From: Sanchytrium tribonematis
Taxonomy: Eukaryota
Reading direction: 5' to 3'
DNA length: 40,862 nucleotides
Assembly (NCBI GenBank): GCA_018985235.1
Contig: JADGIG010000025.1
Location: 1 to 40,862, forward strand
A program made the translations under genes and the position numbers. The notes below the pieces were generated by a model that worked only from the letters and a program-made list of their open reading frames with translations, did not search any database and was not told the DNA's origin. This document shows positions 3,103 through 35,884 of this stretch, piece after piece. The first letter of the stretch is position 1. Every line of letters starts with the position of its first letter.

Positions 3103-5730
3103 ATGTCCAAAATACCTAGATTTACGAAAAAACCTGCAAAATCTTCGTTACAAACTAGCAAATCTAATTCCTCAAAGCCAAAACCAACTCTTAAAATTAA
3201 CAATCAAAAGAAATTGAAAGATTTGACCATTTCCACAGAAGAGAAAAATTCCTATTTTGAATCAAAGAGTATTCAAGACCACATTCAAAAGTCAATTGAT
3301 GAAAAATTCGAAACAGAAGAAGAGTCGAAACCACAAAACATTGAGATTGCTAACCAAATTGCAAATATTTTAAAGAAAACTACTGTCGAGGATGAGGACG
3401 AATTGGAGCCATTTGACGACGATTTAAAAGACATTATTTTTGACGAAATTCATGCGAAAAAAGAAGAGTCTATTCCATTACATGATGAAATTGAGAACGA
3501 ATTATTATTCGAGTATGAACCCAGCGAAGATTCATTGCTGTATGCTCAGTTAAATAAGCCCAATTTTAATCAAAAAGTAGAAGCTATCAACAACTCAGCG
3601 CTTGCCTTCACTCTTTTGCATATAGATTTAGTAGACGACTTAGCTCACAGAAAACGATCTCTGATAAATATTGCGTTGGGTCTTCCTAGTGAAAAAGGAA
3701 GAAGAACCTTCATGATGAAAAAAGCTACTTTGTTAAAAAAGAAAACTGATCTCAACATAGAAAGGCGTTTTCCGCTTGACATGAAGGTAGACTTGGAAGA
3801 CTGGTTTAATGGCACTCTTGAAATATCTGTGGACGTGACAAATGAATGGTGTGGAAAGGGTGCTATATCTCTCAGCAAATTCAAGAAAAAATCTGAATTT
3901 CGGAAGAAAGTTCCCCTGTGGTCGGTTCGGAAATATGGGAAGCAGGAAAATTTTTACATTGGCGACTTGTTCATAAACTCACAATTACTCAATTATGAGA
4001 GTAGTTCTTCTTCTGAAGAGGAACTTCCAGTCAAACAGATTCTTTCCGACACAGAATCAGAATTGTTTCAATCAAAACTCTCGAAAACGGATTTTACAAA
4101 AAACACTGACAGTTTATTAAATGACATACCTTTGATTAAACCTCAGCACATACCAGGTGAAATGCAAGTAGAAATATTGGGTGATAAAGTCCTTAATATT
4201 TTAATATCGCAATACCATCCATTATCAAGTTTAGAGTCAGATGTATTTTGCTGCATTAAAATCCTCCCGCTAGGTCAACCTATTCAAACTGTTCCGAAAA
4301 GTAGTCCTTATGTAATAGATTTTGAGGTATCAATTCCTTTTATACCGGATAAACCAGGTATCATAGAGATTTGGAGAAAAGGCTCTCCAAATGTATTTAT
4401 AGGTCTTTGCAAACTGTCATTTGATAAAAGGCAAGCAAGTGGCGGGATAATGCTATTATTTCCCAGTGCCAGTTTAAGTGTTTCTAATCCTATTACTGGG
4501 GAATATCAAGGCGCATTAGAAGTTTGTTTTGGATTTGGGAACGAGCAGAAGTTAAAAGCAAGTATTAGCAAATTGAATAAGCAATCGTTGCACAATATAT
4601 TTGAAAATGATTTTGCTGATGAATTTGTGGATGCTACAAATGTGAATGTCAACCAGCAGACCAATACCAGTCTTTCCAATCTGAACAAAACATTTAATTT
4701 TTTAAAATCAAAAGGCGTCGACCAATCTTGCATGATCTCGCCTGAAACGAAATCTGGATATCACCAAACCAACACTTTCAGGGCTAAGGACTCTGCGGAT
4801 CAAACTCAAAGTAAGAAAAACGTAGAAGATAAAATAGTGGGAGACTCCAAAAATCCAAAAGACGAATACAATCAAACTATTGGGCAAATTTTAGAAAACA
4901 AAAATTTCCAAACTTCAAATAGAAATATAGCGCAAGATAATAAGACCAAAACCGGTTTAATAGCTAAGTCATCGGCAATCCCTGCGGTAACGGACAATGG
5001 CACTTCTTTTCATCGATACGATGGAAAACATATTCCATTAGAAGAAGTCAATTTAGATGAAGAGAACGTTATTAAATTAGGATCAATGAAGCTTCAAATA
5101 TCGAAAATATTTCCACTTCACAATTTTGAAGATCGTCTTATCGAAGATTTCGAGAGTCAAAACTCGAATAGAACTAGAATCAGTGAAAGCTCATTCTATG
5201 TGACTTTTAATTGGTATCCAGATGCAAAAGGGGACGTAAAATCTCGACAAAAGAAAATTGTTCATGCAGCATCATATGAAAATAATTGTATCACATTCAA
5301 CAAAATTGAAAATCTTGCAGTTCAATTATCGCCCGAAGTTCTTTCAAAATTTAAAAGCAGGAAACAGACGTTAAAACTCTGGCGAAAAAGCTCGCGAGGA
5401 GATTTTCTAATTGCTTTCACTATACTTGATCTGCACTATTTATTTGATGGGCTGGACACCATGGAACAATGGTTTGATTTGGTTGACTCGAATGGGGTGG
5501 TGCTTGGTCAAATTCTGGTAAATTTGGAAGTTGACAAGTCAATATTTAGAAAGTCAGTTTCAATGACCAATTATTGTTCCCACGAACAAGTCAACTTAAA
5601 ACCTTCTGCTTCTCAATTTTCTCTGCGGAGTCACGAAGATATTACTCAGCACGATCTCGAATCAATTTATTCAATAGCTGATGGAAACATGGATAAAATT
5701 CATCAATATTTAAATCGAATTAATAAATAA
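3103..5730 (+). CDS. Multi-C2-domain protein, C2CD3-like (distal centriole protein), shortened and divergent
   Basis: 875-aa ORF with C2-like beta segments (IIEIWRKGSPNVFIGLCKLS; SVSNPITGEYQGALEVCFGFG; LIAFTILDLHYLFDGLDTMEQWFDLVDSNGVVLGQILVNL) that resemble the C2CD3 C2 domains as I recall them. Confidence 0.6.
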   Translation: MSKIPRFTKKPAKSSLQTSKSNSSKPKPTLKINNQKKLKDLTISTEEKNSYFESKSIQDHIQKSIDEKFETEEESKPQNIEIANQIANILKKTTVEDEDELEPFDDDLKDIIFDEIHAKKEESIPLHDEIENELLFEYEPSEDSLLYAQLNKPNFNQKVEAINNSALAFTLLHIDLVDDLAHRKRSLINIALGLPSEKGRRTFMMKKATLLKKKTDLNIERRFPLDMKVDLEDWFNGTLEISVDVTNEWCGKGAISLSKFKKKSEFRKKVPLWSVRKYGKQENFYIGDLFINSQLLNYESSSSSEEELPVKQILSDTESELFQSKLSKTDFTKNTDSLLNDIPLIKPQHIPGEMQVEILGDKVLNILISQYHPLSSLESDVFCCIKILPLGQPIQTVPKSSPYVIDFEVSIPFIPDKPGIIEIWRKGSPNVFIGLCKLSFDKRQASGGIMLLFPSASLSVSNPITGEYQGALEVCFGFGNEQKLKASISKLNKQSLHNIFENDFADEFVDATNVNVNQQTNTSLSNLNKTFNFLKSKGVDQSCMISPETKSGYHQTNTFRAKDSADQTQSKKNVEDKIVGDSKNPKDEYNQTIGQILENKNFQTSNRNIAQDNKTKTGLIAKSSAIPAVTDNGTSFHRYDGKHIPLEEVNLDEENVIKLGSMKLQISKIFPLHNFEDRLIEDFESQNSNRTRISESSFYVTFNWYPDAKGDVKSRQKKIVHAASYENNCITFNKIENLAVQLSPEVLSKFKSRKQTLKLWRKSSRGDFLIAFTILDLHYLFDGLDTMEQWFDLVDSNGVVLGQILVNLEVDKSIFRKSVSMTNYCSHEQVNLKPSASQFSLRSHEDITQHDLESIYSIADGNMDKIHQYLNRINK

Positions 5731-11031: not shown

Positions 11032-11595
11032 ATGGACACTGAGTCACTTAATGAATTGACGCAATATATCGTATGGAAAGCTCAGATATCCACATCAGAG
11101 CTATCAAGTATGGTGGGTAGGCGAGCTCTTTATAGTGACGATTTATCTTACATAAACCATCGATTAAGTCCACTTAGTTTAAAAATTGAAAAAGCGCCTG
11201 CACCATTGCTAAAGAGCTCAAGAAGTGTCGCGTACTACGGTGTCAATACGGATTATGATGCTATTGATTCTCTTCACCCAGAAATTGATTCTGATATTTT
11301 AGCATTTGTATTATGTTATATTTACCTTGAACATCAAAGGGCAGATTTGGAAGTACTCAAATCAGAAATGAATAAGATCCAAGGCAGCGATCATTGTTTA
11401 TCTGCTCTTGAAAAGCACGGTTATATAGAAACAAGCAAAAAGTTAAATCTGGCTTCATGGGGACCAAAATCAAGAATACTATTTACGACTAACGATATAC
11501 TCGATTGCCTCAAAAAAATATATCAAAGAGACATTGTCGAAGCGGCAAAGAAAGCAGGGACTCATGAGCATAGCTTTGAAATATTTCGAGATTAA
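11032..11595 (+). CDS. MAGE-domain protein, probable Nse3 subunit of SMC5/6
   Basis: ILAFVLCYIYL, then L.KHGYI and SWGPKSRILFTTNDILDCLKKIY, matches the second MAGE winged helix (WGPR...kvLefvakiY). Confidence 0.65.
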   Translation: MDTESLNELTQYIVWKAQISTSELSSMVGRRALYSDDLSYINHRLSPLSLKIEKAPAPLLKSSRSVAYYGVNTDYDAIDSLHPEIDSDILAFVLCYIYLEHQRADLEVLKSEMNKIQGSDHCLSALEKHGYIETSKKLNLASWGPKSRILFTTNDILDCLKKIYQRDIVEAAKKAGTHEHSFEIFRD

Positions 11596-11599
11596 TTTA

Positions 11600-12613
11600 T
11601 TAAAGTATTTGCTCTCTAAAGTGCTTTTGACTATTTGCTTTAACACCCAACTTCAGTCTCCAGTCGTTTCTAGACCTTTTCCTCAAGTCTCTCTTAGGAA
11701 CTTGCTGTGGCGGATTTTGCTTCGCAACATCTCTGGCTTTATTGTCTTCAATGTTGGAATAATGCTGCTTATAATATTTGTGCCAAGACCGATGCCCTAG
11801 TTTTTTTTCACCATTTAAAATTAATTCATTTGTGTTAGGATCTAATGTTACCAAAGTGGGATCTTCCATTGAGGTAAAATCATAAAAAGCCGCATATTCA
11901 TTCCAATGCTCATCCTCAAATTTAATTTTACAATGACCTAAATCAACCATGTGTTTCTGACAATCAACAACTGATCTGAATAAGCCTTTTTCGGGTTGGT
12001 CCAATTGATGGCACCAAACGCAGCCAAAACCAATCTTGACCTTATGCCCCAAATAGAGTAGAAGTCCTTTAATATCTACTAAATATTCAATATCTGGGAA
12101 AAAAAATTCATGAGTAGTGACCATATGGTCAATAGCATCCTCGATTTTTTCAAAGGATTCTGGGCAAAATAAACATTCTTCTATTAAAACATTCTTACTC
12201 AACTTTTCTTCATCCGTGGCAACCCTAATTACCCTTTTCTTCTTTTCTTGAATATCGACCTCATGTTCTTTGCCCCTAGCATTTTCTATGTGTTTTTTCG
12301 ACTGTGTGTGCGTGATATATCCATTCTCTGTCACGTATTGTTTATTGCAAGGTTTGCAAGTATAAACTAAATCAGAAAGAGGGGATGCATCGACTTTCTT
12401 TTGCTCAACCTTTATTTGAAATTCTTGAGCACTAACACTAGGCAAACCATTCATTTTTAATTTCAAATTGTATCGATGCCAGTCACTACCATGGTGTCTA
12501 CGTTGTTGATCGCCGACACTGAAAGCAATTCCACAGATTCCACAAGTAAACATATAGGCAGTTGTGTCTGTTGATGTGGAAGGAGCTGGTGAATTTGATC
12601 GTTGTTCACTCAT
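11600..12613 (-). CDS. REI1: Rei1/ZNF622 cytoplasmic pre-60S maturation zinc-finger protein
   Basis: FTCGIC...SDWHRYNLK, CKPCNK, CLFCP...HMVTTHEFFFPDIEYLVD, HMVDLGHCKI and C-terminal HFREQIL. Confidence 0.92.
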   Translation of the reverse strand: MSEQRSNSPAPSTSTDTTAYMFTCGICGIAFSVGDQQRRHHGSDWHRYNLKLKMNGLPSVSAQEFQIKVEQKKVDASPLSDLVYTCKPCNKQYVTENGYITHTQSKKHIENARGKEHEVDIQEKKKRVIRVATDEEKLSKNVLIEECLFCPESFEKIEDAIDHMVTTHEFFFPDIEYLVDIKGLLLYLGHKVKIGFGCVWCHQLDQPEKGLFRSVVDCQKHMVDLGHCKIKFEDEHWNEYAAFYDFTSMEDPTLVTLDPNTNELILNGEKKLGHRSWHKYYKQHYSNIEDNKARDVAKQNPPQQVPKRDLRKRSRNDWRLKLGVKANSQKHFREQIL

Positions 12614-12809
12614 TTGTTTCGAGGATCCTTCAACAAAATGTTTGATTACTTTAACTCTAAGTACTTTCTCAAGTATTCACTATGGAGCCGTCAAAGTGCT
12701 AGGTCTTCCGAATACCATATATAAAGATTAAGGCCGACAGAAAGTTACGTTTTATTAAAACTAAATTGCGGTATTTGAGTCTATACAAAGGTACGCGAGA
12801 GGGAGGTAT

Positions 12810-15155
12810 CTATTTGCTTTGTAACTTTGACTGAATGGCTTCGAGCAGTTCAGCAACATCTTTTGCAGAAAACCCCTTTTCTTCAATGATATCATCAAAG
12901 GTAGTTTTTCTAGACGGTTCCGACTTTTGAGACTTAATGAAGTCAGATAAATGCTTCGGGATGTTGAATTTGACAGGAGTGACGTCTAACGAAGATCCCC
13001 CCAAGCGATATTCGTATTTTTGAAGACGATCTTCAATATTCTCAATATATTGGCTATAATTTTGAAGTAAAAATTTTATAATTTCGCAAAAATGCCGCTC
13101 AGCTACGGCTTCATAAGTCGGAAACACTCCATAGTAACGGGCCAAGTCCGCCATATAAAAATATTCTGATTTGTCAGATATGGACAAATCTTTATAAATT
13201 TCATTAAAATGAGATTCTACTTGCGTAGCATGTTCTCTGTCATTTAAAACTAAAGAATATTTAAAATAACCACAGTCTTTTTCAAATTCCTCTCTGAGGG
13301 ATCTGTCTCGCAAAGACTGGCTGGTAATACCATGTTTAATCCATTTCCTGTCTTTTAGTTTAGGATCTGTCACCCCATCCTGCAAACCACTTATAGGGAT
13401 TCGGACATAAATCATATGTGATGCATAGTTGATTACTAAACTAGAAACGGTTGAAGACGTTTCTTCCTTGCGATGTTTTGTTTCCGAAGGTAAACTAGGA
13501 TATGACTCTAAAGTAGATTCAGGATGATACTGCAAGTAATATGCACGAGCTCGATCATACGAAGTAAAAGTTCTCATTCGTTGGTTTGGATAGCCAGAGG
13601 TGAGTTTCTTTGCTTCCTCCAAAGAGGTAAAAATACCCGTTTTACGTCCAACCACTACTGAGTAGTACTTTTCTTTAGTTGCAGAAATTTTATGCTCAGG
13701 TTTTGCGTCCAGCGGGAGACACGACATACTTTCATGTGGAGAAATGGATGACGCAGTTTGAGATGTACTTAAGGTTGAGGTATCATCTGTAGTGGCACTG
13801 TAGAATATTCTGCTTTCAAAGAATTTAGGTATTATGCCAGGATTATATTCATTAAAAAATTGCAGTGCTTCTTCATAAGTCTCAAATCCTTTTAGTTTTT
13901 GACCAGGATATCCGTCAGAAACTTTTCTGGCCTCATATATATTGACATATATTCCGATTTTACACTTTGGACCTACGGCTACAGCCCAGTATTTGTTAGT
14001 CCCTTTATAAGAAGGATAAAATTTTGGCTCAACTCCAGGATTAAATTCTTTAAAAAATGAAACTGCTTCTGCCGCCGATTTACATTTTCTAATTTTTTGA
14101 CCAGGGTATCTTTCAGACGCCAACTTTGCCTCGGACATGTTCTCGAAGATTCCGATTTTCCTTCCGACAGCAACACTATAGCATACAATTGCATCATCAT
14201 ATGCTGAGGAACCTAATGCAGAATCACTTTTAGGCTCGAATTCAAATATATACGGTTCTATAAAAGGATTGCTTTCTTTGTATAATTTAATGGCATCGTC
14301 CTTATTATCAACGTAGATTGGATTGTCATAATATCTCTTGGCAAGTTCTAAAGAAAGGTATATTCCGTTTCCTTGTCCAGAAGGAATGACATAATATTTT
14401 GAGTGACGTGATCGCAAACTGTTTGGAAAATTGCTTCTATGTAAATCTGTCAATTTTGGACCTAGATTGTTGCTAGATTTTTCTTCCGAGTTGTGGTCTC
14501 TGAAATGAACTGGACTTGTATGCGGATTAAGACTTTTGAAACTCGATTCGGCCTCAGCTAATGTTTTAAACGGAATAATTTTAGCATCGCTGCCATTTTT
14601 CCTCATGGCGGTATCTCTTGAATCAAAAAGGCCGGGGCATAATCCCGTAGGAACGCAATAGCATGGATGATAGTTCTTGTCTTCATTTATATTAGTATCT
14701 TTTTTAGGAAAAGAACCCGTTGAATTGGAGTAAAAGGGAACTCTCATGTTTGGATTGTAATCGAGGAAAAAAGCTTCAGCTTCTTCATAAGATTTAAATC
14801 CTCGAAGCTTTTGGCCAGACGTGCCATCACAGTGTTTTCTTGCCTCAGAATGAGATGTATAAATTCCGACTTTTCGTCCCACAGCAACTACATAATAGCT
14901 ATTGGCATTCTTCGAGGCTTTTAAACTTTTAAATTCGTTTCTTTTGCTAAATAAAAATGGATCTGGTGGCGCGCCTCCAACTCGTTTTGCTAAATTCCTT
15001 TCTTTGAACCATTTCATCAAAAAATATTCGGCATCTTTTTTATTATCAAATCTCTTTGAAAATTGCCCTGTAAACCCTTCGGTTTGGGCCCTACTTTCAG
15101 TTGCTCTTTCAAATATGCCGGTTTTTCGTCCCACTAAAACTACAAAGTATGGCAT
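12810..15155 (-). CDS. Protein with 7 RNase H1 N-terminal hybrid-binding (Cauli_VI/viroplasmin) repeats and a C-terminal GIY-YIG/T5orf172-like domain
   Basis: Repeats of the form YxVxVGRKxGI(F/Y)...EA...GYPGQ...F...EA..F at about aa 2-46, 86-130, 165-206, 253-292, 325-368, 388-434 and 496-540. At aa 580-667: IYVR...IKHGIT...LRDR...E.HF...SEYF. No RNase H catalytic (DGS/DGA) motif seen. Confidence 0.75.
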   Translation of the reverse strand: MPYFVVLVGRKTGIFERATESRAQTEGFTGQFSKRFDNKKDAEYFLMKWFKERNLAKRVGGAPPDPFLFSKRNEFKSLKASKNANSYYVVAVGRKVGIYTSHSEARKHCDGTSGQKLRGFKSYEEAEAFFLDYNPNMRVPFYSNSTGSFPKKDTNINEDKNYHPCYCVPTGLCPGLFDSRDTAMRKNGSDAKIIPFKTLAEAESSFKSLNPHTSPVHFRDHNSEEKSSNNLGPKLTDLHRSNFPNSLRSRHSKYYVIPSGQGNGIYLSLELAKRYYDNPIYVDNKDDAIKLYKESNPFIEPYIFEFEPKSDSALGSSAYDDAIVCYSVAVGRKIGIFENMSEAKLASERYPGQKIRKCKSAAEAVSFFKEFNPGVEPKFYPSYKGTNKYWAVAVGPKCKIGIYVNIYEARKVSDGYPGQKLKGFETYEEALQFFNEYNPGIIPKFFESRIFYSATTDDTSTLSTSQTASSISPHESMSCLPLDAKPEHKISATKEKYYSVVVGRKTGIFTSLEEAKKLTSGYPNQRMRTFTSYDRARAYYLQYHPESTLESYPSLPSETKHRKEETSSTVSSLVINYASHMIYVRIPISGLQDGVTDPKLKDRKWIKHGITSQSLRDRSLREEFEKDCGYFKYSLVLNDREHATQVESHFNEIYKDLSISDKSEYFYMADLARYYGVFPTYEAVAERHFCEIIKFLLQNYSQYIENIEDRLQKYEYRLGGSSLDVTPVKFNIPKHLSDFIKSQKSEPSRKTTFDDIIEEKGFSAKDVAELLEAIQSKLQSK
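13521..15155 (-). repeat. Seven degenerate intragenic ~45-55 aa repeats (HBD/Cauli_VI)
   Basis: Protein-level repeats, most followed by an NP..xP.F(Y/F) extension. Repeats 3 and 4 are the most degenerate. Confidence 0.85.
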
Positions 15156-15330
15156 TTAATTGTGTTTAATAGGGGTCAGATATTGTGATTTCTTGGGAGA
15201 TGTATTTTTGGGGAATGCGTTCTATGTACCTATTTTAGAATTTTTTTGAGATTGAATAAGCATTTTTAGTCTATAAATAAAAAGACTACTGTATCACTTT
15301 AATAATTTCAAAACTTGGAGTGGCTCGAAC

Positions 15331-16249
15331 ATGGCAAAATACATGAGATATTTCATCGTTTACATGATATTATTTATACCCCTTTGGTACAAATTAACAG
15401 AATTGTATAGAGCAAACATAAGAGAACCCGTTGCATGGGAATCAAGCCAAACATTTCCCGAGAGAGAATTTTGCATATACGTTCCAAAAGTAGCATGGCA
15501 TGTCTACATAGTTCATTTCAAAGAAGTGCCTGGATCGATTAAGCGTGAAATTTTGGAAAAAAATCTTAATTTTGCATCAAGTGAGTTACCACTAAATATC
15601 ACATATTCAATTTATGAGGTTCATGAAAATAAAATCACTCTGCCAACAAACCAAAAAAATATACAGTCTATTATGAATGAATATACCACAGTGAATTTGT
15701 TTGAAGATAATGTGATTCACACAATTGTTTACAATGTAAATGAGACCGAATCTCGCAATTATTTAAGAATTCCAAGATGGGGATCTATTCATACAGAGAT
15801 TAATTACGACAGCATTGTTGATTCTTTGTTGAAAGTTCATTGCAAACTAGACAATCAACCCAAAGCAGATTTGTATAGAAAATATATTGATTATTACGGT
15901 CTTGAATCATATGATTTGGTAAGATCATTAAGGAAACTAGTGAATGAGCTTTACAACATGATTGTTCCAGATACGATTGCAGATTTTGTTGATGATTATA
16001 GGCAACATATTTTGATAGCGAAAAATGAAACAGATTTACATAACGCTGTGTATGAAGCAGGTAAAGCTTATCGTTTTGCCCACAAAGCGTATTATCATCC
16101 ATCTATAACTTCAGTTCAAACGTATCCGGATGAGCACAAATATGCGATATACTGTAATTTTTATTCATTTAGTACCTTTTGTGTTGCCATACGTTTATCC
16201 TATCATTGCAACACTCTATGAGCTCAAAACCCAAATCCCTGATGCTTAA
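15331..16249 (+). CDS. GPI17: GPI transamidase subunit PIG-S/Gpi17 (exons 15331-16153 and 16173-16249; 299 aa)
   Basis: N-terminal TM segment with PLWYKLTELYRA, then IPRWGSI and AYYHPSITSVQTYPDEHKYAIY. Removing a 19-nt intron continues into LPFVLPYVYPII, matching the family YAIYxPLFLP TM motif. Confidence 0.85.
16154..16172 (+). other. 19-nt spliceosomal intron (phase 1)
   Basis: GTAATTTTTATTCATTTAG; removal restores the PIG-S C-terminal motif. Confidence 0.85.
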
Positions 16250-16294
16250 TTTCCGTGATTAATAAACATTCTCTTGCTTGAAAAAATCTCCTTG

Positions 16295-17305
16295 ATGCAA
16301 AATACAAATAGACTAACAAATTATTCGATACAGATTTTGATAGCAACTGTTTTAAAAAAGAATTATGATAGTATGAATAAGCAATCACTTCAAATATTGA
16401 CCAGCATATTTACCCAATACATATTGCAAGTCGGCAAAGTGAGCAAACATTATGCAAATTATGCAGGACGATGCCAAGTACAATTAGAAGATGTTCTGTA
16501 CGCCCTTACTGACTTTGGAATAGATTTTACTCAGTTGATTCGGCAAAAAATGCGACACGATTCTATGTATGAACTTGTTGACGTAGAGGAGAAACCAGCA
16601 AGATCGCCACCGACCCAGAACCAAAGTGAAAATATACCGACTCATTTGCCTGATTTTCCTCAAAAAGATCTTGTGAAAACCTCATATACTCCTGCTCAAG
16701 TAGATGTTATTCCATTTCATCGAACGGATTCAAATGATGACAGTATAATAACTGATGCTCCGGATATTCCGCCGAGATTAGACCAATTTGAACCAGATCC
16801 ATCAAACAAAGAATTAAAAAGTTTGTTTGATGTATCGAAAGAGGAGATAACTCAAGCTTTATATACTACAATGAAGGAAGTCGAAGTTGCACAAGAGAAC
16901 ACATCTGAAGAGCTGGAATCTAACAGGAAGACGTCAAAATTAATAAGAAAGCAATTATACATGGATGCGCTCAAACGACATCCTCTGTTACATCAGGACA
17001 TTGGAAGCCATTCTGATCAATATCAATATATGACGCTTTTTCCATTTTCCCCGCACTTCGAAATGCCTAACAGCGCTCAATTATCTACTAGTTGTCGTGC
17101 TAGTTATTCTAGCTCTCGAATTCCACCAGGTTGGCTACTGGCGCCATATAAGATAAACCTGAGACCACCTACACACAAAAAGGTTCTGGATTTTCAAGAC
17201 GTAAATGATTTGCTTGAAGATGATGGTAACAACGAGCAGCAAGATAGGGAATATAGAAATTCATATTTGGACGCAGTTTTAATGCAAAGCAGGCTTAAAT
17301 CTTAA
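16295..17305 (+). CDS. Bromodomain-associated (BTP) histone-fold protein, TAF8-like (TAF3 not excluded)
   Basis: LQILTSIFTQYILQVGKVSKHYANYAGRCQVQLEDVLYALTDFGID histone fold followed by IPTHLPDFP. First ATG is at 16295. Confidence 0.7.
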   Translation: MQNTNRLTNYSIQILIATVLKKNYDSMNKQSLQILTSIFTQYILQVGKVSKHYANYAGRCQVQLEDVLYALTDFGIDFTQLIRQKMRHDSMYELVDVEEKPARSPPTQNQSENIPTHLPDFPQKDLVKTSYTPAQVDVIPFHRTDSNDDSIITDAPDIPPRLDQFEPDPSNKELKSLFDVSKEEITQALYTTMKEVEVAQENTSEELESNRKTSKLIRKQLYMDALKRHPLLHQDIGSHSDQYQYMTLFPFSPHFEMPNSAQLSTSCRASYSSSRIPPGWLLAPYKINLRPPTHKKVLDFQDVNDLLEDDGNNEQQDREYRNSYLDAVLMQSRLKS

Positions 17306-17310
17306 TAAAT

Positions 17311-17433
17311 TTATTCTGTCCGCCATCTATTTTTCTTATTGTACAGCAAATATACAGAAAATGAACCTGCTGCTGCTATGAATCCCCATCCTATCAAAAT
17401 TTGACCCGGAGAATTAAATTTGAAAAGCGTCAT
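17311..17433 (-). CDS. 40-aa single-TM microprotein (DUF4748-like), not in the ORF track
   Basis: MTLFKFNSPGQILIGWGFIAAAGSFSVYLLYNKKNRWRTE*. It is preceded by CTCCT as other genes here are, fills the gap exactly, and its GWG..AAG..Y pattern resembles small fungal DUF4748 proteins as I recall them. Confidence 0.65.
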   Translation of the reverse strand: MTLFKFNSPGQILIGWGFIAAAGSFSVYLLYNKKNRWRTE

Positions 17434-17469
17434 GTAGGAGAACTTAATTTACAGTGATAAAACATAAAT

Positions 17470-18279
17470 TTATTTAAATGGCTTACTTACCATATAACTT
17501 GACTCATAATGCGTAGTTTGGTGATTGGGGGCAGGTGCACCATTATTGATAATTGGTTGCCTGATTTCCTCTAAATTTAAAATGGACCTCCTTGGATTAT
17601 AATAATCATCATTTTCCAGTTGGCTATCTTGTCTTTTCAGTTTTTGCTTCTTTTTCCAAACCAAAGCACCAAATGAAAATGCGATGATTAATGCACCGAT
17701 GATTGAAACTAAAATAATCCACCACAAATCCTCGTTTGTTCCAGACATGGAGTCTTGTGCGGTCTCATCATTAAGAAAATCAGTGTCATCCCATGAACCT
17801 AAAAAGTCTTTCCCACAGGATGCGAGCGCCTTTGCTTTGATCCGCTCTGCAAATGTGTCGTTCGAAACACTTTCAAATTTTAATTCATTGGAAATCATTC
17901 TAGATTGACAGGTAGAACATGTGAGGTTTAAAGTGGACAATTTGGAGCTCACATCGTCTACTGTGGCTGCACCCTGAGCAATCCATGTGTCTAATCTTTC
18001 CTTGTAACATAAAATCCCGTTGGATTTTGTACATCTTGAGTTCCATTGATATATGCAATACTTTAAAATTTCTGGCTTATTTTGCTCGTATAAACATTTA
18101 GCAATATTGTTGCGATATTGACTCGAACACTCTGGTGTGCAAACATTTTGGGCATTATGATTTAAGTCGACGAGATAGGATGTTTTGCTGATTAAAGTTA
18201 ATGTGCAGTCTGCTGGTAAATGACATTGAGGTACTTCACTTAGTTTATCGCAGGCCATAATGAAGGAAATTATTATCAT
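17470..18279 (-). CDS. Type I membrane protein with a Cys-rich ectodomain, function unknown
   Basis: Short hydrophobic leader MIIISFIMA, about 12 Cys in the ectodomain, TM segment LWWIILVSIIGALIIAFSFGALVW followed by KKKQK, and a Tyr-containing tail. Confidence 0.75.
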   Translation of the reverse strand: MIIISFIMACDKLSEVPQCHLPADCTLTLISKTSYLVDLNHNAQNVCTPECSSQYRNNIAKCLYEQNKPEILKYCIYQWNSRCTKSNGILCYKERLDTWIAQGAATVDDVSSKLSTLNLTCSTCQSRMISNELKFESVSNDTFAERIKAKALASCGKDFLGSWDDTDFLNDETAQDSMSGTNEDLWWIILVSIIGALIIAFSFGALVWKKKQKLKRQDSQLENDDYYNPRRSILNLEEIRQPIINNGAPAPNHQTTHYESSYMVSKPFK

Positions 18280-21467: not shown

Positions 21468-21544
21468 TAATCTTGTGGGTTACAAGTTCCCCTAACACCT
21501 TCTCACTTTTTTTACAAAATAAAAAATTTTCTAAACATATTTTC
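21468..21544. promoter_or_regulatory. 77-nt divergent intergenic region between SMC5 and ACADM
   Basis: Head-to-head ATGs at 21467 (-) and 21545 (+). Contains CCCAC on the minus strand near SMC5 and CCCCT on the plus strand. Confidence 0.5.
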
Positions 21545-22754
21545 ATGCTGAGACTTGCTAAACGAAAAATCTCTTTTCAACTTACTGAGGATCAAAAACA
21601 AATCCAAGAATTAGCTAGAAATTTTACAAAGCAACATATTATCCCAAATGCTGCACACCATGACAAGACTGGAGAATATCCAAGTGAAATTATTAAATCA
21701 GCCTGGGAAAATGGATTATTGAACACAGATATTCCCAAAGAATATGGAGGTTTAGGATTGAAACTCTTAGATGCAAGTTTTATTAGCGAGGAATTGAGTT
21801 TTGGGTGTTCAGGGATTCAAACTGCAATGGAGGCTAATAATTTGGCACAGGCGCCTGTAATTTTAGCCGGAAATGATGCTCAAAAAAAGAAGTATTTAGG
21901 AAGAATGGTAGAGGCTCCGTTAATGTGTGCCTACTGTGTAACAGAACCTGGTGCGGGCAGCGATGTTGCTAATGTTAAAACTAAAGCAGTCAAAAAAGGT
22001 GATAAATATATTTTGAATGGATCGAAAATGTGGATTACAAACGGTGGTAAAGCTAACTGGTACTTTGTGCTTGCCAGAACAAACTTGGATCCTAAAGTTG
22101 GTGGACACAAAGCATTGACAGCTTTTGTAGTGGATGCAGACAGCAAGGGAGTATCACTCGGGAAAAAAGAACTCAACATGGGGCAGGGAGCCAGTGATAC
22201 TCGTGGTGTCAATTTCGAAGATGTTGAGGTCCCAGCAGAAAATGTTTTAGGACTTGAAGGACAAGGATTTAAAGTCGCTATGGGGTAGTTTTCTTTAATA
22301 TAGAGTTTTTGATATGACTAGACCACTTGTTGCTGCTGGTGCAGTTGGTTTAGCTAAAAGAGCTTTACACGAGGCCACTGATTATGCTTTACAGCGTAAA
22401 ACAATGGGAACTGAAATTTTTAATCATCAGGCGGTTCAATTCATGCTAGCTGATATGGCGACTGGGGTTGAAGGTGCGAGACAACTTACTAGACTGAGTT
22501 GTTGGCAATATGATAACAAGATTCCAAATACCTACATCGCTTCTATGGCAAAATGTTATGCTAGTGAAGTGGCTAACAAGAATGCTGCAGACGCAGTCCA
22601 AATTCATGGTGGAAACGGATTTAATTCAGAGTATCCTGTCGAAAAGCTCATGCGTGACGCAAAAATTTTCATGATCTACGAAGGAACATCCCAAATTCAA
22701 CGATTAATTATTAGTAGACTTTTAAAAGGTAAATATGAAAGTGGAAACCTATAA
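21545..22754 (+). CDS. ACADM: Mitochondrial medium-chain acyl-CoA dehydrogenase (exons 21545-22284 and 22304-22754; 396 aa)
   Basis: [39 protein letters not shown]. The two track ORFs join as GFKVAMG-VFDMTRP after a 19-nt intron is removed. Basic presequence MLRLAKRK. Confidence 0.95.
22285..22303 (+). other. 19-nt spliceosomal intron (phase 2)
   Basis: GTAGTTTTCTTTAATATAG; removal restores the conserved GFKxAMGxFDxTRP motif without a gap. Confidence 0.93.
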
Positions 22755-28918: not shown

Positions 28919-31607
28919 TTACATCATAGTGGAAGAGGGTCTTTTGTTTATTTTCAAGCTCTTGTCGCTTAGGTTTCTCTCATTTTTGGGATCTGGAACT
29001 CTCTGAAGGGAATTGAAAGCACTAAAATCATCTGTCGAAGCATCTAATATCTCTGGTTCTATGCCTTTTTCAAAAAACGCCACACTTATCTCTGGATTTA
29101 TCATTTGACTCTGTTTGATTCTCCCATCATTTGGGTCAATATCAATGGAAGCACTAATTGTTGACAGGGCTCTAGAACCACTTATCATGTCAGGGTCGTC
29201 TAATACTTCACTTAATCTTTTAATAGATGCTAATTCCTTGTCGATCTTTTCTGGTTCAATTTCAGTCGAAAGTCTAGATTTCTTGGGTGAAACCTTATCT
29301 TGAAGTTGCTTGTCGATAGAATTTAGACTTGTTGACGCATGATTTTCGTCCTTGATCTTGTCTTTCGGCCTTAACTTGCTAGCAGACTCAGATGATTCAA
29401 GCTTAGGGATCTTCTTTTCATCTTTTTTTATTTCATCTGGGAATGGTTTGGACTTTTTTGAGGTATCCCCCTTAGAAGGCGATTTTTTCATTTCGTAATT
29501 TTCTGCTGCTTTTTTGACGGAAGATTTCTTGATGTCAGACTCATCACTCACCGAACTATCTGCAAATGAAATAGATTTAGGACGATCATTCAAATTATCA
29601 AGTTTAAGCTTGTTTGATTTACCAGTCGAATTTTTGGGCTCAAGCTTCAAATCAGCAAATTTCTCTTTTGTATCAGTAAATTTCAAATTGTGTGCTGAGC
29701 CGTGCTGTGGCTGTTCTTTGTCCTTTCGAACATCTTTCTCAAGCTTTGCGGTTTCTTCTTTGCTAAATGCGATTTTCTGTATTCTTTCTAGTTGTTCTTG
29801 CTGCTGAATACTTAATGACTGTTTGTCCCCGGCTTGTGGTTGTTTTACACTCTGGCTTCGCCTAACACTGCCTTTATTGGCAACTCGATCCTTTTGGCCT
29901 TCAAAGACTTGGGAGTCATCGCTAGTCTCAGATTGCTTGCGAGGATAATTATACTGTTTTTGCTCGATTTCTATAGGAGGTGGGATGGTTTCTCTTCTCG
30001 GGTTTATTTCATAATAAGAACTGCGAGCATTATTTAGTCTTTCAGAAGAAGTTCTTTCTGCTTGCACATAGCTGCTGTAGTACGGATCTGCTTTTTTATA
30101 TGCATCAAATTGTGGGTGTTCATAATTTTCTCTAAAATGACCGCCAGAATATGGATCACGTCTGTAAGAATCATAAAAATTATTTCTAGGGTCAGCCGAG
30201 CCATACTGGTCTCTAGCAAACCTAGGATCATTTAAGGGAAACTGGGGCTCTCTATTTCTAGGATCATTTGGACCAAACTGTTCTCTGACAATTCGTGTAT
30301 CTGTTCTCCCATCTTCTCTGTTACGAGGATCTTGATAGCGAGGATCATTTCTCGGATCACCAATTTGAAATTCTCTAGCAACCCTAGGATCAGTCCTTGG
30401 TTCAGAAGGAGAATATGGATCTCGAAGTGCTCTAGGGTCATTTCCAGGAGGAACAAACGAGGAATATCTAGGATCTTGAGGATATGGTCTCGCTTGTGGC
30501 AAATTTGCAAATCGGGGGTCTCTGGATAATTCCTTTCCGTCTTTCGAAAATCTCGAGTCGCTACCGATTGTGGAATAGCGATTCTCGCTATTGAATCTAC
30601 CTTCACTATTGCCACTGAAACGAGATTCATCGTATGGCAACCTGTTATCAAAATCCATTCTCAATCGTGGATCATCCCTTGCAAATCTCGGGTCCATTTC
30701 CGGTGGGTATTCGTATCGCATGTTTCGCATTCTGTAATATTCTTCGCTGGACATCTGAGGGTAATCGTAATAGTACATCGGTGGAACAGGGTAGCCATAC
30801 ATATCGTACATTGGCATTCTTGGAGGGAACATTTGCTGATAATTTGTTCCACTATAGTCACTATAATAGTCAGGAAAATCATTTGGACGAGGTGGATATC
30901 TGTTTTTAGCAGGGTCAAAAGTTTGGCTTCTCAACCTTTCGTCATCTTTGTGATTATTTGCATCAGGGTCTTGGCCATTTTTATTCAAATCATTCATAGA
31001 TTTCATGGATGGTGCTTTGGTAACTTTAACCTCTTCATCTTCGCGTTTTTTGGAGCTTTCCTTGGATGTATTTGATCTGAGAATGCCTTTTTTCTTCTTT
31101 TCTTTTTCTTCTGGTTTTTTATCAGATAATGATGTAGTGGATCGTTTAACTACAGACGAGGGAGAGGCTAATGACGGGGATTCTGAAAGTGGAATTGTTG
31201 GTTGCACAGTTTCTCTATCTTTTTGGGATGGAGACAGTGGCGACTTAGCATAATTATCAGCAAGAATTAAATCAATAGCAGTTATCCACTCAAGAAGCTG
31301 CTCTTCGCTGGAAGCTGCAACATCCAGGGTACCTTGTTGTGTGACAATAACAAACCTGAATTTTTGAACTTCGTCCTCGACGCGTTTTGTTCCAATGATA
31401 CCACTAGAATTACTATGTTAGTGTAAATTACCATGACCACTGAGTAGTTGTAGATTGATACATTAATTTTTCGTCAGTTAACTTGAAAAAATACAACTTC
31501 CACTTATCCTCATATAGTTTATATAAATATCCACTTGTTTCTGCATCTTTTTGTGTCTTTAATTGATTAACTTGATTATAAAGTTTAGCTTTGACTTTTT
31601 TAAACAT
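28919..31607 (-). CDS. PH-domain protein with a long disordered, DPR-repeat tail (exons 31607-31432 and 31412-28919; 889 aa)
   Basis: Exon 1 MFKKVK...SGYLYKLYEDKWKLYFFKLTDEKLMY joined to ...FRFVIVTQQGTLDVAASSEEQLLEWITAIDLIL forms a complete PH domain in frame with the 762-aa track ORF. Confidence 0.85.
30170..30700 (-). repeat. About a dozen Asp-Pro-Arg (DPR) peptide repeats
   Basis: DPRF, DPRL, DPRY, DPRA, DPRV and DPRN recur in a Tyr/Arg/Pro-rich low-complexity region. Confidence 0.75.
31413..31431 (-). other. 19-nt spliceosomal intron (phase 2)
   Basis: GTAATTTACACTAACATAG on the minus strand, with a CTAAC branch site; removal completes the PH domain. Confidence 0.9.
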
Positions 31608-32859: not shown

Positions 32860-34713
32860 ATGTTGGCAATTTTGCTCTTCGTTATTGCTAAAACATTCTC
32901 AGATATTAAATGTTACTATCACGATTTGAGAAAAAGATCGGATACGATTGACATTGAAAGATCAGATTTTATGATTGAATTAACAGTTGAAGCACTGGAT
33001 GGAATTTTAAATAGTAGGTCATCAACATTATATATTATTGAAGCATACGCACCATGGTGTCCACACTGCCAGAAGTTTGGCCCTATAATAAGTGAAGTTG
33101 CTGACAAATTACACAAAGAATTTAAACCACAAGAAATTCAAATGTCTAGATTAAATTGCGACAAATTTTCTGGTGCATGTGACAAACTTAAAGTCAAAGG
33201 CTTTCCATCTGTGTACTCATATTACCATGGATCAAAAAAAGCGGAATTTGATGGTGATAGGGAAATTGGAGATCCCATTTATAAATGGATTCATAATCAA
33301 TTTACAAACATCCACGAAAGAAAGGAAACTAGCGCTAAAGCAGATGGTAGTATGTTTTCCAAAATTTACTTGGAGAGTAAAATTAAAAAAAATACTTCCA
33401 CTTTTCCCGTCAAATTAGAAGAGGTAGACAAAATTTCTCAACTTGGTTCAGATCCATGGCTTCTATTCAATGGAAAAAAGCCTGACATTCTAGAAAAAAT
33501 TTCAGCAAGATTTAATGGATTGTTGCGAATCGGTCATGGTGATCTCACTGGATTTGCACCAAAAAGAAAAAACGGATATTTTTTATTTTTCCTTAAAACT
33601 GGAAATTCACAAACTCTAATTCCACATGACAGCCATATAAATACAATAGATGAGATCTACCTTTTTGGCATAAAATCGCTCCTTCTTAATTATATATATG
33701 ACCCTGAAGCTCTAAAAAAATCTGGATTCGAAATGGATGAGATTAGTCATGAATTTAACTCTATATTTTTTCCTTTCGTTGAAGATATAAAAGAACAAAA
33801 TTACATGTTCTTGCATCTCGATCTGAAGACATTATCCTTGGAAAATTTACTGAGAATTTTGTCGGCTCTCAGTGAAGAATTAGATACATATGATTTTTAT
33901 CCTGTAGGCATATCCGTACAAAGACCAACACAAGGCCATAGAATTAAATTTTACTTGAGCCATGACAATGTACACGCAAATAATTACCTACAATCTGAAA
34001 AAATGAAGAAAATCTCTAATAGTGAGAGCAAAGATGTTCAAAGTTTTGTACTCTGCAATGTAAAAATACCATACAAACTAGGTTCAGAAGACTACATACG
34101 TTGCATGAAAGAGGTTGATACAGAAAAAATAAGATCTTTTGTAAAACATCACAAAGTTTTTGACATATCTGAGATCACTCCACTAAATGTAAAATCAGTC
34201 TTCAGTGCAAAAACACCACAGATTGTAGCTCTTGTTGATCCTTATTTACATACGAAATTCACATCTAACCTTCATGGCATAGTTGCTAAAACAAGAGTCG
34301 AATCTACTGAAACTTTAAAAAAAATATTTACATTAGATGCATGGTTTTTTAAAGAGTATGTATCCACGGCTTTTAATATCGATTTTAATGAAGAAAAGTT
34401 GCCTTTGGTAGTATTGGTTAAAGATGGCAAATATTATCGGTCAGATTCTAATCTTAAAGAATACAATGACTTTGAAAAGGCGTATGATTATTTTACTACT
34501 CTGATAGACAAATCTGGTTTCCATGATTTTGTAGATATGCACACAAAAAGAACAATTACGACAAGTTCTGCATTTTTGAGTGAAAATATTGAAAAAAGAC
34601 CCACAAATTTCTACCTTGTGGTATTGGTAGTCATTTTAATCATTGCATTTGCCTTAAGGTATTTCACCAAAAGCAGCTACTCGTTATTGCCATCTCATAA
34701 TAAATTTGCATAA
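32860..34713 (+). CDS. ER membrane thioredoxin/PDI-family protein (Eps1/TMX-like)
   Basis: Signal peptide MLAILLFVIA, YAPWCPHCQKF active site, GFPSV cis-Pro loop and C-terminal TM segment FYLVVLVVILIIAFAL. Confidence 0.8.
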   Translation: MLAILLFVIAKTFSDIKCYYHDLRKRSDTIDIERSDFMIELTVEALDGILNSRSSTLYIIEAYAPWCPHCQKFGPIISEVADKLHKEFKPQEIQMSRLNCDKFSGACDKLKVKGFPSVYSYYHGSKKAEFDGDREIGDPIYKWIHNQFTNIHERKETSAKADGSMFSKIYLESKIKKNTSTFPVKLEEVDKISQLGSDPWLLFNGKKPDILEKISARFNGLLRIGHGDLTGFAPKRKNGYFLFFLKTGNSQTLIPHDSHINTIDEIYLFGIKSLLLNYIYDPEALKKSGFEMDEISHEFNSIFFPFVEDIKEQNYMFLHLDLKTLSLENLLRILSALSEELDTYDFYPVGISVQRPTQGHRIKFYLSHDNVHANNYLQSEKMKKISNSESKDVQSFVLCNVKIPYKLGSEDYIRCMKEVDTEKIRSFVKHHKVFDISEITPLNVKSVFSAKTPQIVALVDPYLHTKFTSNLHGIVAKTRVESTETLKKIFTLDAWFFKEYVSTAFNIDFNEEKLPLVVLVKDGKYYRSDSNLKEYNDFEKAYDYFTTLIDKSGFHDFVDMHTKRTITTSSAFLSENIEKRPTNFYLVVLVVILIIAFALRYFTKSSYSLLPSHNKFA

Positions 34714-34738
34714 TATCCTAAATAGATTTCCCCTTTTA

Positions 34739-35884
34739 ATGTACTTTCTTTCAATTTGCGCACAAATTATTTTTCATTGTACAGATGATAGAATCCAACA
34801 AAATTTAGATACTGCCAAGAATTTATTTGAAAATACGCTAATTATTAATAGAGAAATTCATGTATTTGTAAATTTGATTGACCTTGGAATCTCTTTAAAT
34901 AATAACATGAATTATGGCTATGCTACTCCATCTTTTGTGATAGGTAGTTTTCAAAATATGACTATATCACTGACTGTTCCACATTACCTACTGACCTCAG
35001 CCAGTTCTATTTATTTTGACGAAGCATTCAAAATTGACATTGAGGAAAAATATATTCAGGAAGATATATTGGATTATATCATTGTACACGAACTGTTCCA
35101 TGGTTTCGGATTCGAATCTACCTTGACTAATGAATTTTCAGGATCAGCTGGACAAACATTAAGCGATAATGAGTTGGTATTTTTGCCACCAACATTTTGG
35201 GATATTTTATTAAATAAGAACGGGATTTCTTTAAAGAATCATTTTTTTAAGCCTTTGGATGGTCTTTGTTGGAGCAGTCACATAAACCCAATGCATAAAA
35301 AATCCAAGGACGAGATATATGGTAGAGTTGGAAGTTTTTTGCATAAAAAGAACACTGATGGAAGTCTCGAAAATATGGATATTGGTCCATTTATGAGCGA
35401 TAATTACACAATACGATTTGGCGACCAAGGGAAAAATGTTTACGTGCTTGATGGATTTGTTGACAAATTTATAACTGGCTTACGTGCAGGGGCTGGCTTT
35501 TGTCATATAGATTCCGGAATCATGCATATTAAGTCAAACGATTCCTCCCCGAGTGATAAAGGTATTTATGATTACCTTAAGAATGATCCAGCTTGGGATA
35601 TTTTGTGTTGGATGGGATATCAATTTAGAAATAGAACATGCCCAAAGATCATTTTTGAATCAAAATTTGTTAAAGCAAGTGAAATAGATCCAAAAGAAGT
35701 GTGTAGTCAATATCTAGATTTGGACCTTTACGAAACTGAAGTTAAATATTGGGTATCGCTAAGAATTGCAATCCTTCTTGCTGTGGGTCTTGTGGCACTT
35801 ATTATTTTATGGTTTTTGGCCAAACAAATATATAGATTCTTCCGTCCAAAAACAAGCAGGCCAAAGTTGAAAGTTTTCACCTGA
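34739..35884 (+). CDS. Membrane-anchored zinc metallopeptidase (HExxH, metzincin-like)
   Basis: IIVHELFHGFGF, a distal HIDSGIM (possible third ligand and Met-turn) and a C-terminal TM segment. The ATG at 34739 is preceded by CCCCT. Confidence 0.7.
   Translation: MYFLSICAQIIFHCTDDRIQQNLDTAKNLFENTLIINREIHVFVNLIDLGISLNNNMNYGYATPSFVIGSFQNMTISLTVPHYLLTSASSIYFDEAFKIDIEEKYIQEDILDYIIVHELFHGFGFESTLTNEFSGSAGQTLSDNELVFLPPTFWDILLNKNGISLKNHFFKPLDGLCWSSHINPMHKKSKDEIYGRVGSFLHKKNTDGSLENMDIGPFMSDNYTIRFGDQGKNVYVLDGFVDKFITGLRAGAGFCHIDSGIMHIKSNDSSPSDKGIYDYLKNDPAWDILCWMGYQFRNRTCPKIIFESKFVKASEIDPKEVCSQYLDLDLYETEVKYWVSLRIAILLAVGLVALIILWFLAKQIYRFFRPKTSRPKLKVFT

Follow-up and report, generated by a model that had tools for sequence, protein, structure and literature searches.

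We describe a gene of Sanchytrium tribonematis that joins two known domains in a real and apparently undescribed fusion. The gene occupies positions 12810..15155 on the minus strand of a 40,862-nucleotide stretch of DNA (contig JADGIG010000025.1 of assembly GCA_018985235.1), which we call the window, and its 781-aa product carries seven Cauli_VI repeats followed by a predicted GIY-YIG nuclease domain of the T5orf172/MUG113 type. The reading that we favor, to which we assign a probability of about 0.5, is that the protein is a domesticated virus-type DNase that would be held by avidity on RNA-containing duplexes and would nick nearby DNA, likely in genome upkeep. An earlier note on this DNA had remarked that its author did not know of the architecture being described, and we likewise found no description of a Cauli_VI array fused to a GIY-YIG domain in the literature searched, where most subscription papers were outside reach.

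The fusion gene, its repeats and its chromosomal setting

The open reading frame is uninterrupted, and an in-frame TAA lies immediately 5' of its ATG, so the protein has no N-terminal targeting extension unless one is added by splicing. Repeat 1 begins at residue 2-3 in all five members of the family described below, and a simple scan for basic clusters gave no clear nuclear signal in the 781-aa protein. The window is gene-dense eukaryotic DNA with a GC content of 0.349; values of 34.64 and 36.27% have been published for sanchytrids (PMC8371127). With names read from Pfam matches, its gene set includes Dcc1, PIG-O and ATP-synthase genes as well as the neighbors of the fusion gene, which are housekeeping genes (Rei1-like, PIG-S, TAF, SMC and Trm3-like). 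Codon use of the fusion gene is host-like, with a GC3s of 0.289 versus 0.244-0.334 for the neighbors. Between positions 11500 and 16500 there are no long terminal repeats or element ends, just short chance repeats, and hallmarks of mobile elements or homing endonucleases (terminal repeats, element genes, an intron setting) are absent from this interval and from the neighboring genes. Rfam gave no matches in the window, and no tandem DNA repeats were found in it.

One contig of sequencing run X1 covers 12384-17500, including the fusion gene, PIG-S and the TAF gene, with no differences, although this is not independent confirmation because X1 may be the source of the window DNA. A soil metagenome contains two 151-base contigs that fall inside the fusion gene with 0 and 1 differences. 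Within the Rei1-like gene (12278-12413), run X1 contains two alternative 136-base contigs with 5 differences, reflecting allelic or strain variation. Elsewhere in the window, two neighboring plus-strand ORFs (21473-22288, N-terminal and middle domains; 22314-22754, C-terminal domain) together encode an acyl-CoA dehydrogenase and are probably separated by a very short intron, and four ORFs of 875, 762, 392 and 187 aa (3103-5730 (+), 28919-31207 (-), 34706-35884 (+) and 11032-11595 (+), respectively) have no Pfam family at E ≤ 0.1.

The Pfam Cauli_VI model (PF01693) matches five stretches of the protein (E 7.7e-53). We also built a repeat profile on the four homologs described below, using 15 of their 17 repeats, with the window protein excluded and 500 shuffles as the control. 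This profile recovered the seven tandem repeats that the earlier note had counted, as five clear repeats (49-64 bits) and two degenerate ones. The clear repeats, all on the minus strand like every feature of the gene, are repeat 1 (aa 2-49; 15009..15152; 56.4 bits), repeat 2 (aa 86-133; 14757..14900; 64.0 bits), which matches the N-terminal domain of yeast RNase H1 (1qhk, E 1.6e-4), repeat 5 (aa 325-371; 14043..14183; 49.4 bits), repeat 6 (aa 388-437; 13845..13994; 58.8 bits) and repeat 7 (aa 496-543; 13527..13670; 56.4 bits), which can be aligned to the hybrid-binding domain (HBD) of human RNase H1 (3bsu). The degenerate repeats are repeat 3 (aa 164-208; 14532..14666; 5.6 bits) and repeat 4 (aa 253-about 297; 14265..14399; 12.1 bits), the latter recognizable in its N-terminal half only (aa 253-280; Pfam positions 1-23), and both outscore all 500 shuffles, the best of which reached 2.6 bits. 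In a tree of the family's repeats, 1 of 24 branches was starred, and the tree gives no order for the duplications. The claim that no RNase H catalytic domain is present also held, as Pfam found none in the 781-aa protein and the match to the NCBIfam RNase H model is limited to the N-terminal part of that model.

The C-terminal domain and its relatives

A search with aa 570-740 against 1.84 billion representative proteins yielded seven matches at E ≤ 0.001. These were the window protein, P0010 and P0009, both taken up below, and four proteins (P0002, P0006, P0007 and P0008; 540-631 aa) that matched at E 1e-32 or better. Each of the four consists of 4-5 Cauli_VI repeats, 17 in total, followed by the same nuclease domain, whose pairwise identity across the family is 40-68%. 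The only named homolog is from Amoeboradix gromovi, a sanchytrid fungus that parasitizes algae. The C-terminal domain had no match in a word-index search of proteins 122-389 aa long, a profile search among longer proteins found nothing beyond the six rows aligned below, no related loci were present in the viral contigs, GTDB genomes and metagenome contigs searched, and the best phage tblastn match had an E value of 0.7. The fusion family appears to be lineage-restricted. Two candidate relatives proved to be false: P0009, an ankyrin protein (E 1.2e-4), scored 5.6 bits against the family profile and was judged spurious, and metagenome locus L001 is a dehydrogenase gene.

The core of the C-terminal domain, delimited by profile, model and conservation, spans aa 579-666 (13158..13421) and contains, exactly as the earlier note had written it, the motif IYVR (582-585), 21 residues, KHGIT (607-611), three residues, LRDR (615-618), E647 and SEYF (663-666); this motif lies at nucleotides 13158-13412. 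The predicted catalytic residues are Y583 (13407-13409), K607 (13335-13337), R618 (13302-13304) and E647 (13215-13217), along with G609 and the family residue E664. Downstream are a helical and beta-hairpin extension that is conserved in the family by alignment and model (aa 667-745; 12921..13157) and a short C-terminal tail (aa 746-781; 12813..12920). This tail is a shortened form of a longer, conserved post-nuclease tail common to P0002, P0006, P0007 and P0008, which has no convincing Pfam match. Neither Pfam nor inspection of the sequence revealed a RING domain or Cys-His pattern in the C-terminal region.

We aligned the domain in six rows (the window protein, the four homologs and P0010, an outside relative discussed below), and 23 of 176 positions are invariant in all six, including Y583, K607, G609, R618, E647 and E664. 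Three of these (Y583, R618 and E647) had been named beforehand, and all three fall among the invariant positions (p about 0.002). The window domain has a single Pfam match, to MUG113, at 13.2-13.8 bits against a cut-off of 22.3; one of the four full-length homologs (P0008, 24.1 bits) clears the cut-off, and four of the six rows match MUG113 (best E 2e-5), with PF10544 not among the matches.

A model predicted from the six-row alignment had a pLDDT of 84.6 and a pTM of 0.83, versus a pLDDT of 37.2 for a single-sequence prediction, and its elements (E11-18, E36-42, H46-51, E60-68, H71-84) follow the GIY-YIG order of two strands, Arg helix, third strand and Glu helix. Among the best 50 rows of a BFVD search with this model, 11 were named T5orf172 or GIY-YIG, with probabilities of up to 1.00, and the two of 500 matches with E ≤ 0.001 were a C2H2 protein and a DNA primase, so named, of giant viruses. 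Foldseek found no PDB match at E ≤ 0.001. In a wider structural search of 48,161 PDB chains, four reached Z ≥ 5 and three of them belong to GIY-YIG enzymes. At-HIGLE ranked first (Z 6.0, rmsd 4.0, 118 residues aligned) and Slx1 second and fourth (Z 5.7 and 5.1), all at middling Z values, with which a second comparison agreed. The third strand and Glu helix (profile positions 51-93, window ~13140-13270) also match ribosomal protein eL38 (best E 0.007; 9 of 9 PDB matches), probably by analogy, and we set this reading aside because the fold and motif evidence favor GIY-YIG. The earlier note had assigned the domain to GIY-YIG/T5orf172 and suggested Pfam and structure searches as checks; now run, these support, with the conservation, the prediction of a T5orf172/MUG113-type GIY-YIG nuclease domain.

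In the restriction enzyme Hpy188I, the Tyr of GIY acts as general base, the YIG Tyr is replaced by a Lys, and the site is completed by an Arg and a metal-binding Glu (PMC3045582). The roles of Y583, K607, G609 (the YIG Gly), R618 and E647 were mapped from this enzyme by motif and secondary structure rather than by superposition. In the alignment, the Tyr or His at R+4 of the Arg helix is absent from all five family members. Gp88 of ICP1, an active T5orf172 nuclease, likewise retains the Arg and Glu and has no His or Tyr at this point of the helix (PMC8263062). The invariance of the catalytic-equivalent residues and the site pattern shared with active Gp88 make an active nuclease likely, and we consider metal-dependent cleavage of DNA by the domain to be quite likely.

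The closest relative outside the family, P0010, is encoded on a 7,072-base contig and has a giant-virus type of organization, with a KilA-N domain, a divergent T5orf172-type domain and NUMOD repeats. It scores 56 bits against a profile of the other five proteins, and its nuclease domain is undetected by Pfam. KilA-N, Bro-N, MSV199 and T5orf172 domains group together in large DNA viruses (PMC8715426), so a viral donor is likely. MUG113 proteins are found in yeasts too (PMC12719033), and with one outside relative and the fold neighbors as the evidence, we regard a viral origin of the nuclease as reasonably likely.

Residues that select RNA/DNA hybrids

The human HBD prefers hybrid over dsRNA by at least 25-fold, and its W43/K59/K60 triple mutant loses affinity for hybrid (PMC8677849). 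It contacts RNA through its main chain, in a manner tolerant of substitution, and the N-terminal domain of yeast RNase H1 is reported to favor dsRNA (PMC7657459). We scored the 24 repeats of the family at the human positions by alignment to the human HBD, with P0003, a three-repeat algal RNase H, as the control. The Y29 equivalent is aromatic in every repeat (Tyr in 19 of 24), G34 and G38 are retained in all 24, and the K59 equivalent is Lys or Arg in 21. At the W43 position, by contrast with the control, none of the 24 repeats has Trp; the F58 equivalent is aromatic in 3 and lost in 21, and the K60 equivalent is Lys or Arg in 9, whereas all three of these residues are present in 3/3 repeats of P0003. 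The family repeats also share a PGQ signature of their own (Gln in 17/24).

We take W43 and F58 to be DNA-strand contacts in the human HBD. Since W43 is lost throughout and F58 in 21 repeats, the hybrid selectivity of the array may be relaxed or gone. With Y29, K59 and the RNA-contacting loop kept, the array probably makes a relaxed choice between hybrid and dsRNA, and each repeat is probably a weaker and less selective binder, with amplification restoring affinity. Binding of RNA-containing duplexes by the array is what we would predict, with reasonable though not high confidence. The inference of a multivalent hybrid sensor is therefore on weaker ground than the earlier note supposed.

A proposed role in genome upkeep, alternative explanations and comparison with known systems

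The cellular context can be gauged from A. gromovi, for which supplementary file 4 of PMC8371127 annotates 3,755 of 7,220 predicted proteins. In that file, which we searched by term, the homolog is labeled simply "Caulimovirus viroplasmin" and is the only viroplasmin row other than a separate RNase H1 (K03469), which indicates that the fusion family did not replace RNase H1 in this organism. Rows for RNase H2A, MUS81, FEN1, AGO, Dicer and RdRP are present, and there are none for SLX1 (K15078, KOG3005) or SLX4 among the 3,755 annotated proteins; this absence is a hint only, because automatic annotation covers about half of a fast-evolving proteome, and that of a relative rather than of this genome. 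The same file lists a KilA-N protein whose best match is bacterial, and its AGO, Dicer and RdRP rows have oomycete or plant best matches, which could reflect divergence, transfer or host contamination.

In the mechanism that we propose, the seven-repeat array would hold by avidity to RNA-containing duplexes such as R-loops, RNA primers and perhaps dsRNA, the GIY-YIG domain would nick adjacent DNA, such as the displaced strand or the junction of an R-loop, and the enzyme would serve genome upkeep, possibly standing in for SLX1. The main rival, which we consider rather unlikely, is a defence effector whose array would sense dsRNA or the reverse-transcription hybrids of retroelements or viruses and whose nuclease would destroy invader DNA or kill the cell. 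T5orf172 nucleases do work in conflicts, as Gp88 does (PMC8263062), and viroplasmin domains of the HEPN-containing RNase LS family have been proposed to direct a defence nuclease to DNA-RNA duplexes (PMC3710099). The variation in repeat number across the family, from 4 to 7, the dsRNA preference reported for the yeast domain (PMC7657459) and a weak match to PADLOC PDC-S57 (one of six proteins, E 0.0013) are consistent with such a role. However, protein searches revealed no expansion of the family, the window gene sits in a housekeeping neighborhood, and A. gromovi has one annotated copy beside its AGO, Dicer and RdRP rows. The neighborhood and the single copy lead us to lean slightly toward upkeep over defence.

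It is also conceivable, though we think it distinctly unlikely, that the protein is a product of ordinary T5orf172 domain shuffling, its repeats being general DNA- or protein-binding modules comparable to KilA-N, Bro-N or CapR and its enzyme not directed by RNA. Such domains are known with swappable, repeated binding modules (PMC10448857), P0010 carries KilA-N and NUMOD modules, and the family-wide loss of W43 and the frequent loss of F58 and K60 would fit. Yet if W43 and F58 contact the DNA strand, losing them should impair the recognition of DNA, not promote it, and the fold-defining and RNA-side positions of the repeats are retained. Decay of two repeats and of the C-terminal tail in the window copy could suggest an artefact, a mobile element that inserted recently or a nuclease that is dead and serves only as a scaffold, a set of explanations that is already largely refuted and highly improbable: the same fusion occurs in four independent homologs, the catalytic-equivalent residues are invariant, the assembly is contiguous with flanking genes, and codon use is that of the host.

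To our knowledge, known users of the hybrid-binding domain remove the RNA strand of the hybrid. A hybrid-binding array on a DNA-cutting GIY-YIG domain would invert this logic, giving a single-chain DNase directed to R-loops or dsRNA, and a reduced parasite genome would be keeping a nuclease of viral type among its stable genes; the surprise is tempered by the wide shuffling for which both domains are known. A bolder form of the favored reading, which we offer tentatively and consider rather doubtful, is that sanchytrid fungi took a nuclease from a giant virus, multiplied the binding domain of RNase H1 and so made a natural R-loop-guided DNase, which finds RNA:DNA hybrids by avidity, cuts DNA rather than RNA and either replaces a lost SLX1-SLX4 or destroys reverse-transcribing invaders. 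Engineered fusions of hybrid sensors to nucleases exist for R-loop mapping, and such an enzyme, if real, would be their natural counterpart. The 24 natural repeats without W43 also provide material for asking what sets the choice between hybrid and dsRNA.

Among known systems, RNase LS (RnlA family; viroplasmin, RNase H fold and HEPN) resembles the fusion in placing viroplasmin on a nuclease other than plain RNase H, but it is bacterial, cuts RNA with HEPN and acts in a toxin-antitoxin context, with no tandem array described in the accessible part of PMC3710099. SLX1 and At-HIGLE are the best matches among solved structures (Z 5.1-6.0) and may have a comparable role on branched substrates, yet with 11-14% identity, no RING in the window protein and a Lys replacing the YIG Tyr, they are not orthologous on present evidence. 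RNase H1 (PF01693; 3BSU, 1QHK) has the same binding module, likewise N-terminal and tethered to a nuclease, in two copies in yeast and Drosophila (PMC7657459) and three in the algal RNase H P0003. The fusion family differs in having 4-7 copies, all without W43, and a GIY-YIG rather than an RNase H catalytic partner. The T5orf172/MUG113 nucleases (PF10544/PF13455), including ICP1 Gp88, the KilA-N/Bro-N fusions of giant viruses and yeast Mug113/Yfs1, share the nuclease fold, the Y..K.G..R..E..E(Y/W)F set and the modular exchange of targeting domains. Unlike these, the fusion family has a specific DxGYFxY strand and helical extension, with the window copy below the Pfam cut-off, and takes as its targeting module an array derived from RNase H1.
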